A stretch of 64,000 nucleotides of DNA from Escherichia phage vB_EcoM_E9.1. The notes below the pieces were generated by a model. The model worked only from the letters and a program-made list of their open reading frames with translations. It had not been told where the DNA came from and made no database searches. The stretch's first letter is position 1. Every line of letters begins with the position of its first letter. The stretch lies in the sequence record PP886230. One strand, 5' to 3'. Below are positions 39,819 to 54,576 of the stretch, piece after piece. The position numbers were made by a program, and so were the translations under genes.

Positions 39819-40481
39819 ATGATGAAAACAAAATTAGGTTTGTTTTATAAAAATTATTTCGTTAAACAGCGTAAATTTATAAAAAAATATTTCTCTGGTG
39901 AGAAGTCTAGTCCTATAATTTTTAAAAGACCAAGTTATAATACTTACTTAGCGGGTGCTAAACAGTCTAAGAAATTTATTACTCTTTTAAATAAAAACAA
40001 AATTAAAGCTTCTTATGTTGAAACGAGAAGAAACTCATCAATAACTCCTGGTGATTTTATTGAGTACGGATGTTTCAATATTAAGTATAATGATAATACA
40101 TACTTTATGGATATTGATTGTAATACATCCAATCTTTTTAACATTGTAGTAAATCCATTAAAACAATATAATGTTTATGGTGATGCTATTATCAAATTAA
40201 TCAAAAACAAAGATGGCTTTGATTTTGAAATAAATGTTTTAGATGATAATTTTGACGAAGTACCCGTAAACCCTGAAATCTGTGATATTTTAAACAGTTT
40301 AAAAGGTAGTACCTACAATATATCATCTGATTTAATGTTTCAGTACTCATTAATCCATAAAGATATTGAAAAGTATATTGAATGTTCCAAAATTTTGAAT
40401 TATCTTTACGATGAATTTAAAAAGAGTTCTAAAATAACCGCATACACTTTGTACAATATTCCTAAAATGGTGAATCTTTGA
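39819..40481 (+). CDS. hypothetical protein with family-A-like motif
   Basis: ORF 220 aa; SSDLMFQYSLIHKDI resembles the family-A C-terminal motif; 3-prime end overlaps the convergent array gene. Confidence 0.55.
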   Translation: MMKTKLGLFYKNYFVKQRKFIKKYFSGEKSSPIIFKRPSYNTYLAGAKQSKKFITLLNKNKIKASYVETRRNSSITPGDFIEYGCFNIKYNDNTYFMDIDCNTSNLFNIVVNPLKQYNVYGDAIIKLIKNKDGFDFEINVLDDNFDEVPVNPEICDILNSLKGSTYNISSDLMFQYSLIHKDIEKYIECSKILNYLYDEFKKSSKITAYTLYNIPKMVNL

Positions 40482-41614
40482 CAAATACAGTACTGGCAAC
40501 TCCACCGTCTGTAATATATTGTCCAGTACTGTAAATTTGTATACCATCGGTTAAGTAAGTTCTGTATAAAGTTGCTGTAACATATACGTTATTCATATTC
40601 ATCTCTATTGGTAGTACACATTTGGTATAGGCCGACACATCTGTTTGTGTACCTATACCCAATTGACCTGCGTTATCGCCTGTGTTATAACCAGTTGCGT
40701 AAACACCTAATGAAGTTATAATATGATTAGAAAAATATGAATAACCCACACTGCTTCTTATTATATCACCTGGTGCTTGTGTTGTTTGTCTTAACGAAAT
40801 ATATGTTTGTGATGTAGAACCATTTGCTAACTGACCAAAGTATTGTCCACCACCATGATATGCAAATAATTTATTAGTACTATTATTACTTGCTATAGCA
40901 AAAGCGAAGTAACTTGAGTTTGTTGTATAATCTTTCACCGTATAGGTATTAGTTATTTGAGAACATAACGTGTACTTTGAATATAACGTCATGTCGGTTG
41001 TACCTACGCCTGATATTGCACCAGTATAATACAATCTCCCATCGGTTCCAATAAATCCTTGCATAAGAAAATTTGCCAGTATTTTGGATGGTGTTACTCC
41101 AGTAGGTACTGTTCCTTGTACAAATGATGAAAGTGAATCGGTACTTCTACCATTTCCCAGTTGTCCATAACTACCATAACCCGTATTCCATATCGTGTTG
41201 TCTGTACATAATACGCTTAATGCACCTGCACTAACTGCAATTTGTTTTATTGTTTTTCCAAGTGCTGTTATTCTATCAAACACTATCTTTGCAGAAGCCC
41301 ACGTTGTTGACTTATCAGTTGATAAACCGAATGATGCACCATTTCCAGCATACCACATCGTATTATCTTTCTTTTTAATTAATGTTGACTCATACCCGAA
41401 CCCATAGATCTTCTACGTTTGTATTGCACAAAACCCATTTGGTTTGTGTTATAATATTACCTATACCCATTTGCCCAAACTCTTGAGAGCCTCTACTGTA
41501 CAACGTACCATCTGACATAAGGGCAAAAACTGTTGTATCAGATGAAGCTATTTTTGTTACAGAAGGTTGTATGTTCTTTTTTGATGATGTGATAATTCTT
41601 CCAAAGGGTAGCAT
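40462..41614 (-). pseudogene. RCC1-like array member 12, frameshifted
   Basis: Leader MLPFGRIITSS and first RCC1-like repeat are in ORF 41390-41614; the rest (YGQLGNG, FGQLANG, AGQLGIG) is in ORF 40462-41358 in another frame; junction near a T5 run around 41360-41400. Confidence 0.55.
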
Positions 41615-41686
41615 TGTATCCTCCAAATGTAAATCGTTATTATATTTAGGACAAAAAAATGCCAGTACAAGGCACTGGCATAAAAT

Positions 41687-52218: not shown

Positions 52219-53397
52219 TTATCGGTTAAATTTAAAATCTGTTATGTGTGTCCATGTATGATTTAATGGGGTACTCATTGGTGTAAAGCCAGCAGGGTCT
52301 GACAAAGCTGTACCACGTGCGTACATAAATTGATTGCCAGTACAATCCATTATAGCATAAGAACGTGTTGCTGTGCCACATTTGAACCCAACTGCACTAC
52401 TTGGGGTCGGTAATACTTCAAATGTAGGTGCATTTGAACTACCACCCCCATCTTTTGTTCCAGCTATGTACAGAACTCCATTAGTATCAATGATTAAGTT
52501 AGTCCAATATGCTTGTTCTCGACCAGCATAAAAATATGTTAAATCACCGGGTACAAATGGTAACGTTCCTTTATATATTGTAGTATTAACATTCACTGGT
52601 GCACCAGCTACACCCCATGAACTCATATAGTTTCTCCCACTTGAGTAGAATGTAGTTCCTTTACCGTAAAGTATTAATGTTGCTTGACTTGTTCGCATTG
52701 CATTATATTCAAACTCAGGATCATCAGTAGCGTCCTTAAAAATCTGTGTCCATGTTGTTATATTACCAGTAGTCGTAACACCCATTTGATAATAATAATT
52801 ATCACCAGTAGCATAGAATTCTTTAGGGCCAGTTTGTACAATTGCATTCCCATTAGTTAACCAAAAATCTAATGTATTAGTCTTGATCTTGGTTGGTGTG
52901 TAATTCGCCACGGTATTTCCTTTTCCGAAATAACCATTAGCGTTATTTCCATGACCCCATAAATCACCATTAGTTGTGCGTAGGAATAATGTACCAGTAT
53001 TGAATCCAACTTTTTCTATAGTACTTATGTCAATACCAACAGTCGTGTACTTCGTTGTAAAATCTTGAAAAGTACTCCAATAATTAGATGAACCATTAAA
53101 CATGGTTTGTCTACCAGTGTACTTCACTTTATTATCGTTAGTGATAAGTAATGTCCCCCACACTGACGCGAACATTAACTTAACATTTTCCATAACAAAG
53201 TATGGCTTACCGTATGCTGACGCGGTAGTGTTTAAACCTAATAGTTGTCCATCATTACTACAACCCCATACTTCGCCGTTATCCAAAAGCATCAACATAG
53301 TAGGTTTGCCGGATGATACATCCAAAAAGAAATCTTTTGGTGTTGGTACGCCCGGTGCTTCATTTCCATAATTCAACATTCTTCCAAAAGGTAACAT
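52219..53397 (-). CDS. RCC1-like (divergent) repeat protein, array member 2
   Basis: 392 aa; leader MLPFGRMLNYGNEAP; weaker repeat motifs (ANGYFGKGN). Confidence 0.7.
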   Translation of the reverse strand: MLPFGRMLNYGNEAPGVPTPKDFFLDVSSGKPTMLMLLDNGEVWGCSNDGQLLGLNTTASAYGKPYFVMENVKLMFASVWGTLLITNDNKVKYTGRQTMFNGSSNYWSTFQDFTTKYTTVGIDISTIEKVGFNTGTLFLRTTNGDLWGHGNNANGYFGKGNTVANYTPTKIKTNTLDFWLTNGNAIVQTGPKEFYATGDNYYYQMGVTTTGNITTWTQIFKDATDDPEFEYNAMRTSQATLILYGKGTTFYSSGRNYMSSWGVAGAPVNVNTTIYKGTLPFVPGDLTYFYAGREQAYWTNLIIDTNGVLYIAGTKDGGGSSNAPTFEVLPTPSSAVGFKCGTATRSYAIMDCTGNQFMYARGTALSDPAGFTPMSTPLNHTWTHITDFKFNR

Positions 53398-53466
53398 AGT
53401 TCCTCCTTTATCATTATACTATATTTAATACAAATAAGAAAGCCAGTATCAAGTACTGGCATCGTA
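53398..53466 (-). promoter_or_regulatory. array control element
   Basis: Near-identical copy. Confidence 0.6.
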
Positions 53467-54576
53467 TTACTTGGGTAATGGAATTGTGGTCCATCTATTT
53501 GCGGCAACGTCACCTGGTACATATGTAGGACTACCACTTACAGCAATAGTTTCATTACCATCATATACAACACTGAAGTTTGTGCACGTATACAACGCTG
53601 CGGCATCTGGATTGTAATTTTCAAGTGTTAGTGTATTGGTGAACAAATTCAATGCAGTAGTTGAGCCGTTTTTACCATATGCACCTGTAGTATATATCTT
53701 TCCTTCTGTTGTTGAGTACATATTAACATATGACCCAGATGATGATTTAGCAATTTTATCTATCTTGCTATCTATTGTTTTAGAGTTAAATTGAAATGGA
53801 TATACCTGTACGTTAGTATCTAAACCATTTCCCAGTTCCCCATTTAACTGCCACCCTGTGTGGTACATTCCCGCATTTGTATATGCAAGCGTACTATACG
53901 CATTACCACCCATTATTTTAGTGCCAGATAATTTTAAACCAAACGATGTCCACTTACCAGTTTCATTTCCTATGGAACCATAAGCACTTGTACCACACGC
54001 ACGAAGCTCGCCATTTGACGTTAGAAGCACTGTATTATTAACGTTACCAAATATATCAATAACCTGATTAGTGCCATTATTCAGTACTGAAGTAAAAGTA
54101 CTCTGTGAGTAAGTACTACCTGAACCAACAGAACCATTTGTGTTCATACCTCTTCCATATACAATTTTACCATCAGCACTAACATAGTGCATTGAATCAA
54201 AACCAATGGATATCATTTTAATATCAGATATATCTGGAAATGAAGAAGTTACATCTACTCCACCTAGTGGAATTGTATTATTTCCTAAACCTAATGAGAC
54301 ATTAGTTCCGTGCATTATAAATTTATCTTCTTTAAAATATAAAATATTATATCCACCAGCCCATGCATTATTAACGCCATTTGTAATCAGTACCCATTTA
54401 TTTTGTGTAGTAGTTCCAGTAATATTTAACTGTTGATAGTTATTGATTCCACAACCATATAGCGATCCATCACCATATAGTACATATAAATTATCATATC
54501 CTGCAATAACTTTCTTTATTTTTTTGGGTACAGGTGCTACATTCCCATACTTTAACATTCTTCCAAAAGGTAACAT
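53467..54576 (-). CDS. RCC1-like repeat protein, array member 1
   Basis: 369 aa; leader MLPFGRMLKYGNVAP; motifs NGSVGSGS, NGELGNGL. Confidence 0.75.
   Translation of the reverse strand: MLPFGRMLKYGNVAPVPKKIKKVIAGYDNLYVLYGDGSLYGCGINNYQQLNITGTTTQNKWVLITNGVNNAWAGGYNILYFKEDKFIMHGTNVSLGLGNNTIPLGGVDVTSSFPDISDIKMISIGFDSMHYVSADGKIVYGRGMNTNGSVGSGSTYSQSTFTSVLNNGTNQVIDIFGNVNNTVLLTSNGELRACGTSAYGSIGNETGKWTSFGLKLSGTKIMGGNAYSTLAYTNAGMYHTGWQLNGELGNGLDTNVQVYPFQFNSKTIDSKIDKIAKSSSGSYVNMYSTTEGKIYTTGAYGKNGSTTALNLFTNTLTLENYNPDAAALYTCTNFSVVYDGNETIAVSGSPTYVPGDVAANRWTTIPLPK

Follow-up and report, generated by a model that had tools for sequence, protein, structure and literature searches.

A short N-terminal tag shared by a tandem array of RCC1-like genes and by unrelated virion proteins of jumbo phages

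A tandem array of tagged genes in phage vB_EcoM_E9.1

We examined a stretch of 64,000 nucleotides from Escherichia phage vB_EcoM_E9.1 (sequence record PP886230), referred to as the window, in which 12 consecutive genes at 40462-54576 start with a common short peptide, referred to as the tag. The window resembles the 121Q/PBECO4/phAPEC6-type jumbo coliphages of the genus Asteriusvirus, which have genomes of about 350 kb, and its region 40000-55000 has matches in 36 phage records, always piecewise and each covering at most 70% of the region length. A six-frame search of the window for the motif LPF[GAS]R gave 12 matches; all are minus-strand and coincide one to one with the starts of the 12 genes, with no further site elsewhere in the window, and this pattern is far beyond chance. 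The array comprises 10 intact RCC1-type genes, one glycine-rich gene (gene 8, 245 amino acids), and one RCC1-like pseudogene (gene 12), with lengths of 369 to 400 amino acids for the RCC1-like genes (Table 1). The true start codons lie at 54576, 53397, 52147, 50936, 49756, 48545, 47325, 46063, 45254, 44040, 42856, and 41614, and each is the Met codon of MLPF, 6 to 8 nucleotides (nt) downstream of an AGGAGG Shine-Dalgarno (SD) sequence. Four listed open reading frames (ORFs) have longer N termini (e.g., 44112..45272) that begin at in-frame ATGs within the promoter/SD region.

The full tag, MLPF(G/A)RM(V/L/I/M)(K/N/R)Y(G/A)N, is present in 11 of the 12 genes, and the residues that follow are mostly (I/V/E)(A/V/K)P. 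The first-pass annotation, a model's reading of the window from its sequence alone, had described a 12-gene minus-strand array with a shared leader; the array and 11 full tags stand, and the twelfth gene is frameshifted and keeps only MLPFGR. A 1-nt frameshift near 41390-41400 splits its reading frame. Gene 12 is a decaying copy, since the annotation of SHEFM2K shows the gene split in the same way and its counterpart in SP27 and phAPEC6 is partly deleted.

Among the 10 intact RCC1 paralogs, mean pairwise identity is 80% over residues 1 to 15 and 21% over the remainder. The comparison of leader and body that the first-pass annotation had called for thereby came out in favor of a leader conserved in its own right. 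Recent duplication as the source of the shared leader was rejected on the 21% identity of the bodies and on a paralogy that predates the split between Munch and Asteriusvirus; synonymous sites in the tag are, moreover, free to vary in relatives (see below).

Structure and composition of the tagged proteins

RCC1 repeats (Pfam PF00415, PF13540, and PF25390) were found in nine of the 10 proteins scanned, which are all nine RCC1-type genes of the set; the tenth protein was the product of the glycine-rich gene, and gene 11 and the pseudogene lay outside the set. PF00415 and/or PF13540 scored above the gathering threshold in eight of these nine genes, and the gene at 46135-47325 reached 19 bits against a cutoff of 22 for PF13540. 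PF25390 matched all nine with E values of 1e-13 to 1e-30, yet under its 150-bit cutoff. The body of gene 11 is 36% identical to that of gene 10. An AlphaFold2 (AF2) model of gene 9, for which an alignment of paralogs and orthologs served as input, is a seven-bladed propeller with a predicted local distance difference test (pLDDT) score of 90 and a predicted template modeling (pTM) score of 0.87. A Foldseek search with this model placed UVR8 at the top (template modeling [TM] score, 0.75; E value, 9e-21), followed by the RCC1-like domains (RLDs) of RPGR, RCC1, and HERC2, and phmmer against the PDB found UVR8 at 7e-18. The seven-bladed RCC1-type propellers that had been proposed from the repeat motifs are thus corroborated by Pfam, by the AF2 model, and by the Foldseek match.

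Gene 8 is related to PF21722-type proteins of many phages, and its AF2 model (pLDDT 92) has a distinct fold. The sole structural matches to this model, all of them weak, are the fiber of cyanophage Pam3, the tail tip of Bxb1, and the glycine-rich domain of ALK. The bodies of the array proteins are rich in Ser, Thr, Asn, Gly, and Tyr (45 to 56%) and contain 4 to 7% Lys plus Arg, with neutral or acidic isoelectric points (pI 4.9 to 7.9). With this composition, no basic tail, and the same tag on non-RCC1 folds, the array proteins do not, by these indirect measures, conform to RCC1 proper, that is, to a chromatin/Ran function.

In the AF2 models of genes 9 and 8, residues 1 to 18 have pLDDT values of about 47 to 68 and lie outside the fold. 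Because residues 1 to about 18 are outside both predicted folds, the leader is an appended peptide rather than a propeller strand, and in these models the tag is a flexible extension beyond the fold. A "velcro" closure of the propeller by an N-terminal strand was rejected on the same placement and on the presence of the tag on nonpropeller folds.

Distribution of the tag and of the bodies that carry it

At the level of the clade, the tag has the consensus M-[LI]-P-F-x-[R/K/I]-h-h-x-Y-[G/A]-N, spans 12 to 15 residues, and is found at the extreme N terminus only. Searches by tblastn with the 21-residue leader or with its variant from phage CBB recovered the same approximately 60 jumbo phages of one clade, with 1 to 15 copies each, which infect Escherichia, Salmonella, Cronobacter, Pectobacterium, Serratia, Erwinia, Yersinia, Klebsiella, and Xanthomonas; outside this clade, tblastn with the leader gave chance matches only. 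Rak2/K64-1 and PA5oct had no tag match by tblastn, though they may carry a diverged one. A scan of viral contigs with the tag DNA matched 121Q only.

The tagged bodies are far from uniform in fold. For example, CBB has 10 tagged genes (CBB_536, 537, 548, 549, 550, 551, 552, 553, and 554, plus the isolated CBB_144), and their bodies are Kelch propellers, Laminin_G_3 (LamG) domains of the concanavalin-type lectin class, two further families of about 220 amino acids, and a glycine-rich protein. Mixed tagged bodies also occur in Serratia phage BF, Salmonella phage Munch, coliphage EJP2, a 361-kb metagenomic phage, and metagenome contigs, and single arrays among these phages and contigs mix RCC1, Kelch, LamG, and glycine-rich genes. 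On metagenome contig Ga0153956_1002156 (13824, minus strand), a tagged protein of 690 amino acids has an RCC1-like N-terminal half fused to a Kelch propeller, which puts two heads behind a single tag. Overall, the body types are RCC1, Kelch, Laminin_G_3, "LDIDFS"-type, CBB_536/537-type, and glycine-rich. Clustering of 98 tagged bodies by BLAST gave seven mutually unrelated groups, or 51 types at identities of at least 60%. All classifiable bodies are propellers or lectin-like jelly rolls, and no enzymes or DNA-binding proteins were found among about 160 tagged ORFs. The LamG bodies match the distal parts of giant virion/baseplate proteins in PHROGs.

Two observations concern the N terminus of glycine-rich proteins. 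In P0022, a natural variant of the glycine-rich gene, the tag is precisely absent, and an upstream in-frame MNKGG start is followed by NKIEYK. Glycine-rich homologs in Vequintavirinae-like phages and metagenomes (P0025-P0056 and others; PVP-SE1 gp19) have a different conserved N terminus, M-[LI]-E-[LAMT]-[LM], which, judging from its sequence, may be an analogous tag of another phage clade.

Tagged proteins in published virion proteomes

Tagged proteins are prominent in published mass spectrometry (MS) data from virions. In phAPEC6, gp003, 005, 006, 007, 009, 010, 549, and 551 were detected (PMC7247149, Table 1), and all eight are members of the corresponding 12-gene array. In CBB, CBB_144, 536, 537, 548, 549, 551, 552, and 553 were detected (PMC5259590), or eight of the 10 tagged proteins; CBB_144, which stands alone between nrdD and nrdG, was among them. 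GAP32 gp1 was also found by mass spectrometry (PMC5259590). The hypergeometric P values for enrichment of tagged proteins in virions are 2e-7 for CBB and 6e-6 for phAPEC6, a strong enrichment that agrees with the shared virion-targeting or anchoring signal put forward in the first-pass annotation.

The supplementary peptide list for CBB contains peptides from the tag itself, namely, LFEYANVIIPPNYK (residues 7 to 20 of CBB_536), YANVIVEYATK (residues 10 to 20 of CBB_548), and LLQYGNK (residues 7 to 13 of CBB_553). Because such peptides are in the virion list, maturation must leave the tag in place, at least its part from residue 7 onward. A sequence check found no conserved Glu within or after the tag.

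Regulatory cassettes between the array genes

Nine of the 11 intergenic spaces of the array hold a cassette with a fixed order: a terminator-like hairpin with a T-run, a promoter-like motif (TAAATA-N3-TATAAT), and the SD sequence AGGAGG, followed by the tag. A terminator scan found 16 terminator-like hairpins against 5.7 expected, and TAAATA-N3-TATAAT had 14 matches with at most one mismatch, 10 of them exact, against 6.1 expected. Nine of the exact matches precede array genes, and the tenth (8578-8592) precedes the homolog of phAPEC6 gp077 (7401-8555, minus strand). Apart from the array genes, this homolog, which has no Pfam match, is the one large gene that the window has on its minus strand. 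The gp077 protein was detected in phAPEC6 virions with 10 peptides (PMC7247149). An ATAAATA late motif has been reported for CBB structural genes, and the array motif resembles it. Given its occurrence before the virion gene gp077 as well and its likeness to the CBB late motif, TAAATA-N3-TATAAT is probably a late promoter of virion genes. The array motif has a perfect TATAAT and no -35 box, and a consensus scan for sigma-70 promoters with a -35 box showed no enrichment (74 versus 75 expected).

Nucleotide identity extends upstream of the tag through AGGAGG, TAAATATAGTATAAT, and the hairpin GCCAGTAC...GTACTGGC with its T-run. All eleven genes have the same codons 2 to 6 (TTA CCT TTT GGA/GCA AGA), with a joint probability of about 1e-14 under the codon usage of the bodies. 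Genes 4 and 11 are the only array genes that lack a terminator/promoter unit of their own. The gene pairs 3/4 and 10/11 share the junction AATAGGAGGGAAT-ATG (50937-50944 and 42857-42864), where the first gene ends with a TAG stop that falls within the SD sequence of the second, an arrangement that suggests translational coupling.

Table 1. Genes and intergenic cassettes of the tagged array (window coordinates)
Feature	Position	Strand	Description
Tagged gene 1	53467..54576	-	369 aa, RCC1-like propeller; tag MLPFGRMLKYGNVAP
Tagged gene 2	52219..53397	-	392 aa, RCC1-like; tag MLPFGRMLNYGNEAP
Tagged gene 3	50945..52147	-	400 aa, RCC1-like; tag MLPFGRMVKYANIAP
Tagged gene 4	49827..50936	-	369 aa, RCC1-like; 8-nt gap to gene 3; no cassette of its own
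Tagged gene 5	48617..49756	-	379 aa, RCC1-like
Tagged gene 6	47397..48545	-	382 aa, RCC1-like
Tagged gene 7	46135..47325	-	396 aa, RCC1-like
Tagged gene 8	45326..46063	-	245 aa, glycine-rich body (PF21722-like, phrog_4474), not RCC1
Tagged gene 9	44112..45254	-	380 aa, RCC1-like; seven-bladed propeller in the AF2 model
Tagged gene 10	42865..44040	-	391 aa, RCC1-like
Tagged gene 11	41687..42856	-	389 aa, RCC1-like by paralog alignment; 8-nt gap to gene 10; no cassette of its own
Gene 12	40462..41614	-	RCC1-like pseudogene; frameshift, tag decayed to MLPFGR, degenerate upstream cassette
Promoter-like motif and SD before gene 1	54577..54640	-	TAAATATGATATAAT at 54594-54608
Cassette	53398..53466	-	hairpin GCCAGTAC..GTACTGGC and T-run 53460-53442; TAAATATAGTATAAT 53413-53427; AGGAGG
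Cassette	52148..52218	-	terminator hairpin 52214-52192; promoter-like motif 52165-52179; SD
Cassette	49757..49826	-	hairpin 49820-49802; motif 49773-49787; SD
Cassette	48546..48616	-	hairpin 48610-48592; motif 48563-48577; SD
Cassette	47326..47396	-	hairpin 47390-47372; motif 47343-47357; SD
Cassette	46064..46134	-	hairpin 46128-46108; motif 46080-46094; SD
Cassette	45255..45325	-	hairpin 45320-45298; motif 45271-45285; SD
Cassette	44041..44111	-	hairpin 44108-44083; motif 44058-44072; SD
Degenerate cassette before pseudogene	41615..41686	-	hairpin 41681-41659; promoter motif decayed

Selection on the tag and exchange of the bodies

The tags of Munch, EJP2, CBB, BF, and the 361-kb metagenomic phage keep M1, P3, F4, R6, Y10, G11, and N12 and have no common upstream sequence. 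The codons for these residues vary freely in all five, and the synonymous variation in Munch, EJP2, CBB, and BF involves Pro, Arg, Ile, Tyr, Gly, and Asn. By this codon comparison, the tag is kept by selection at the protein level. Tag residue 2 is Ile in all copies from Munch and the 361-kb metagenomic phage and Leu in all copies from Asteriusvirus, CBB, and BF, and eight of the 13 Munch paralogs are nearer to an Asteriusvirus gene than to any Munch paralog. Such concerted change of the tag suggests one common partner.

Gene order and content of the array vary between phages, as the comparison with related genomes proposed in the first-pass annotation brought out. In megablast comparisons of the array with SHEFM2K, SP27, 121Q, and phAPEC6, most blocks end at one of three kinds of site: codons 12 to 17, the hairpin about 64 to 68 nt upstream of the ATG, or the stop codon. 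From these breakpoints and the varied gene content, it follows that bodies are swapped as cassettes through recombination in the tag and regulatory DNA. The nucleotide identity of orthologs shared with SP27 varies from 100% to 85% even between adjacent genes. The bodies had been described as hypervariable, a term that does not suit them: orthologous bodies are under purifying selection, with ratios of nonsynonymous to synonymous substitution rates (dN/dS) of 0.04 to 0.31, and gene-wide diversifying selection was not seen. Because each body is under purifying selection, the diversity of the bodies represents a maintained repertoire rather than hypermutation, and it is the product of old paralogy and cassette exchange.

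Neighboring features of the window

On the plus strand at 54680-59471 lie about 22 tandem paralogous genes of about 60 codons each, with conserved protein ends (MN..E/DFY at the N terminus and ..LLIFRY / VLKLISI at the C terminus); this array is the counterpart of the ">30 very similar genes" noted for 121Q. On its other side, the tagged array is adjoined by six tandem genes for small multipass membrane proteins (37676-39777, plus strand). A comparable membrane-protein array, CBB_539-547, sits between both tagged clusters of CBB, so the linkage of the two kinds of array may be conserved. Between 40 and 60 kb the GC skew stays negative, although 54.7 to 59.5 kb is coded on the plus strand; the skew there is not a plain reflection of the coding strand.

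A probable docking tag for exchangeable binding modules

We lean toward reading the array as a set of virion-associated binding modules that are docked by a retained N-terminal tag, probably on the outside of the particle. The tag stays on the mature protein and would dock every member of the family onto one common virion component. The docking site would lie on the exterior, where a mixed set of lectin and propeller adhesin heads would be displayed. In DNA terms, each gene acts as an autonomous cassette made up of a terminator, a promoter-like motif, a strong SD sequence, and the tag, and the conserved cassette and tag DNA is the site at which bodies have been exchanged, inserted, or deleted by homologous recombination in related phages. 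A docking peptide is the most economical explanation because the tag is the sole common feature of these proteins and is terminal, flexible, retained, selected at the protein level, and concerted within a genome. Because at least seven unrelated folds carry the tag and yet most are found in virions, the tag is the only common feature available as a determinant of incorporation. Its role in incorporation or docking, a single partner, an external location, and ligand binding by the heads are inferred. Among the models offered in the first-pass annotation, a common adaptor-binding segment for a variable ligand-binding family fits best.

Several properties of the bodies favor an external location. 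Every tagged fold is a typical extracellular binding module. In sequence, the LamG bodies resemble distal domains of giant virion/baseplate proteins, and a composition rich in Ser, Thr, Asn, Gly, and Tyr and poor in charge also points outward. The modeled glycine-rich body resembles fiber and tail-tip domains.

A number of points weigh against this reading. The structural matches of the glycine-rich fold are weak (TM score, 0.28). Tag retention is known for CBB only and from residue 7 onward. The tagged proteins of phAPEC6 yielded few peptides (1 to 5) and are thus minor virion components. Both 121Q and phAPEC6 have an inner body, as seen by bubblegram imaging and cryo-electron microscopy (cryo-EM), and the authors of the phAPEC6 study suggested RCC1 proteins as possible members of it (PMC7247149). 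The promoter class rests on a motif shared with one virion gene, and gene conversion could yield concerted tag changes without coevolution with a partner. The tag as determinant of incorporation, its partner, and the external site are matters of inference and are unproven.

A more specific proposal, which we hold only tentatively, is that MLPF...YGN is a natural plug-in display tag, through which any protein bearing it would be docked noncovalently onto a single conserved outer acceptor, which could be hair-like fibers, the decoration at hexon centers, or sheath rings. The virion would then wear a combinatorial coat of a dozen or more heads, reassorted through the tag DNA. Unexplained hair-like fibers occur on the capsid and tail of 121Q, phAPEC6, and CBB, and 121Q and phAPEC6 have a protein at each hexon center. 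If true, the proposal would explain both these "hairs" and the large "RCC1" gene arrays. The Eneladusvirus paper is silent on hairs, and no correlation between "hairy" morphology and presence of the tag is established.

Alternatively, the proteins could be internal cargo (inner body or ejection proteins), with the tag as a capsid-targeting sequence that escapes cleavage and brings them into the prohead; they would then be injected with the DNA as a diversified arsenal for antidefense or host takeover, much as the polymorphic T4 internal proteins are. A short shared N terminus on unrelated virion proteins follows the logic of the T4 capsid-targeting sequence (CTS), the phage has T4-like head genes, the tagged proteins are minor virion components, and propellers are common scaffolds for protein-protein interaction. 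This explanation remains a serious rival because 121Q and phAPEC6 have the inner body described above. We nevertheless consider internal cargo unlikely: in contrast to known T4 CTS proteins, those in CBB virions still bear the tag, which lacks any conserved cleavage site of the Glu type; the folds (LamG lectins, Kelch and RCC1 propellers, and glycine-rich fiber-type domains) are typical of extracellular binding; the roughly 160 tagged ORFs include neither enzymes nor DNA-binding proteins; the bodies have few charged residues and a neutral or acidic pI; and propellers of 40 kDa would need unfolding to pass through the tail tube.

Rather than serve as the structural anchor, the tag might be a recognition peptide for an assembly chaperone, modifying enzyme, or quality-control factor, with incorporation mediated by other surfaces of the bodies. 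Many peptides recognized by chaperones or enzymes are likewise strictly N-terminal, short, and flexible. We judge this to be improbable, as at least seven unrelated folds share no other surface and yet most are in virions, and as the tag is retained in the particle.

It is very doubtful that the tag has no role as a protein and that its 5' conservation is a by-product of an expression cassette homogenized by gene conversion. Within the window, conservation does reach the SD sequence, promoter motif, and terminator, and codons 2 to 6 are invariant in nucleotide sequence. The leader is not a mere by-product of the cassette, however, because relatives keep its residues with free synonymous variation and no shared upstream DNA, which largely refutes the idea, and because genes 4 and 11 keep the tag without a cassette. 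Conservation also runs to residue 12 (Y-G-N), past any effect of the initiation region, and the sole copy that has lost the tag is a pseudogene.

Least credible of all is that these are RCC1-like "DNA or chromosome condensation" proteins organizing the packaged genome, as many records are annotated and as the phAPEC6 paper speculated (PMC7247149), since the label is merely inherited from the name of eukaryotic RCC1 and has no support beyond the Pfam family name, the bodies are neutral or acidic with little Lys or Arg, the tag is also carried by Kelch, lectin, and glycine-rich domains unlinked to DNA, and bacteria have no Ran.

With a docking tag for exchangeable modules, the label "DNA condensation protein," which is misleading, gives way to a testable model in which one short tag recruits a large set of exchangeable binding domains into virions throughout a clade of 350-kb phages. 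A docking peptide would provide the determinant and candidate cargo for the hair-like appendages or, alternatively, for the inner body. Such a system would represent a new way to diversify host interaction, with numerous small plug-in heads in place of a few long fibers, and would offer a minimal 12-residue tag for loading or displaying foreign proteins on or in jumbo phage particles. The anatomy of the cassettes provides a clean natural case of modular shuffling, with junctions within a coding tag.

Comparison with known systems

The first-pass annotation knew of no described phage system with this architecture, which overstated the case. The "RCC1 / DNA condensation" arrays of 121Q, PBECO4, phAPEC6, and Munch are the same genes, and the arrays, the RCC1 domain, and virion MS data have been published (PMC7247149, PMC5259590, PMC8273493). 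The phAPEC6 paper speaks of "eleven RCC1-like proteins" (PMC7247149), the Munch paper of "13 tandem repeats" (PMC8273493), and the CBB paper lists the 121Q and PBECO4 copies (PMC5259590). These papers treat the genes as RCC1 paralogs, possibly for DNA condensation, and in the texts searched they do not mention the shared tag, the other tagged folds, its retention, or the cassette junctions. A literature search that covered few subscription journals found no paper describing a shared tag, unrelated tagged folds, retention in virions, or recombination junctions at the tag. Relative to the literature searched, the tag, its unrelated folds, its retention, and the junctions at the tag appear to be new, and the arrays, the RCC1 domain, and the association with virions were already known.

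The T4 CTS is an N-terminal sequence of about 10 residues (MKTYQEFIAE) on IPI, IPII, IPIII, and Alt that directs these internal proteins into the virion and is cut after Glu by the prohead protease. Reviews on the subject include PMC9026906 and PMC7697877. In both systems, a short N-terminal sequence is common to unrelated polymorphic virion proteins, encoded in a plastic region of phages with T4-like head genes. However, MKTYQEFIAE and MLPFxRhhxYGN have no sequence similarity. The T4 sequence is cleaved at an (L/I)-x-E site, whereas the tag lacks such a site and is retained in CBB virions, and the cargo here, with up to 15 copies in a genome, is made up of propellers and lectin-type domains and is probably external. 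A T4-like cleaved CTS, to which the first-pass annotation had likened the leader, was rejected on the tag peptides of three proteins retained in CBB virions and on the missing protease site.

Modular receptor-binding proteins, such as tail fibers and tailspikes, including the branched systems of the G7C and CBA120 type, combine an N-terminal anchor with a variable distal domain. The array proteins are similar in having a conserved N terminus, exchangeable distal parts, recombination at the conserved 5' part, and several heads per particle. Known anchors are folded, usually trimeric, and at least about 100 amino acids long, whereas the tag is a peptide of 12 to 15 amino acids that is predicted to be unstructured. 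The tagged bodies are compact, apparently monomeric single-domain folds, with no fiber shaft encoded and no anchor domain of the known kind.

The cassettes also have a parallel in T4-type phages, in which Arbiol, Comeau, and Krisch reportedly described promoter-early stem-loop (PeSL) mobile regulatory cassettes in 2010. As in PeSLs, a stem-loop terminator and promoter are repeated between genes of a plastic region, and recombination junctions fall at the cassettes. Here, however, the repeat enters the coding region (the SD sequence and the first 7 to 15 codons), the promoter is probably late rather than early, and the shuffled genes all belong to one functional class.

Encapsulin cargo-loading peptides, which are usually C-terminal and internal and serve bacterial nanocompartments with an HK97-fold shell, are likewise short flexible terminal peptides that dock diverse cargo; their motif is different, and the likeness is one of analogy only. 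By analogy with these systems, the concept can be seen as a variant of a virion-targeting or anchoring peptide combined with PeSL-like shuffling of cassettes.

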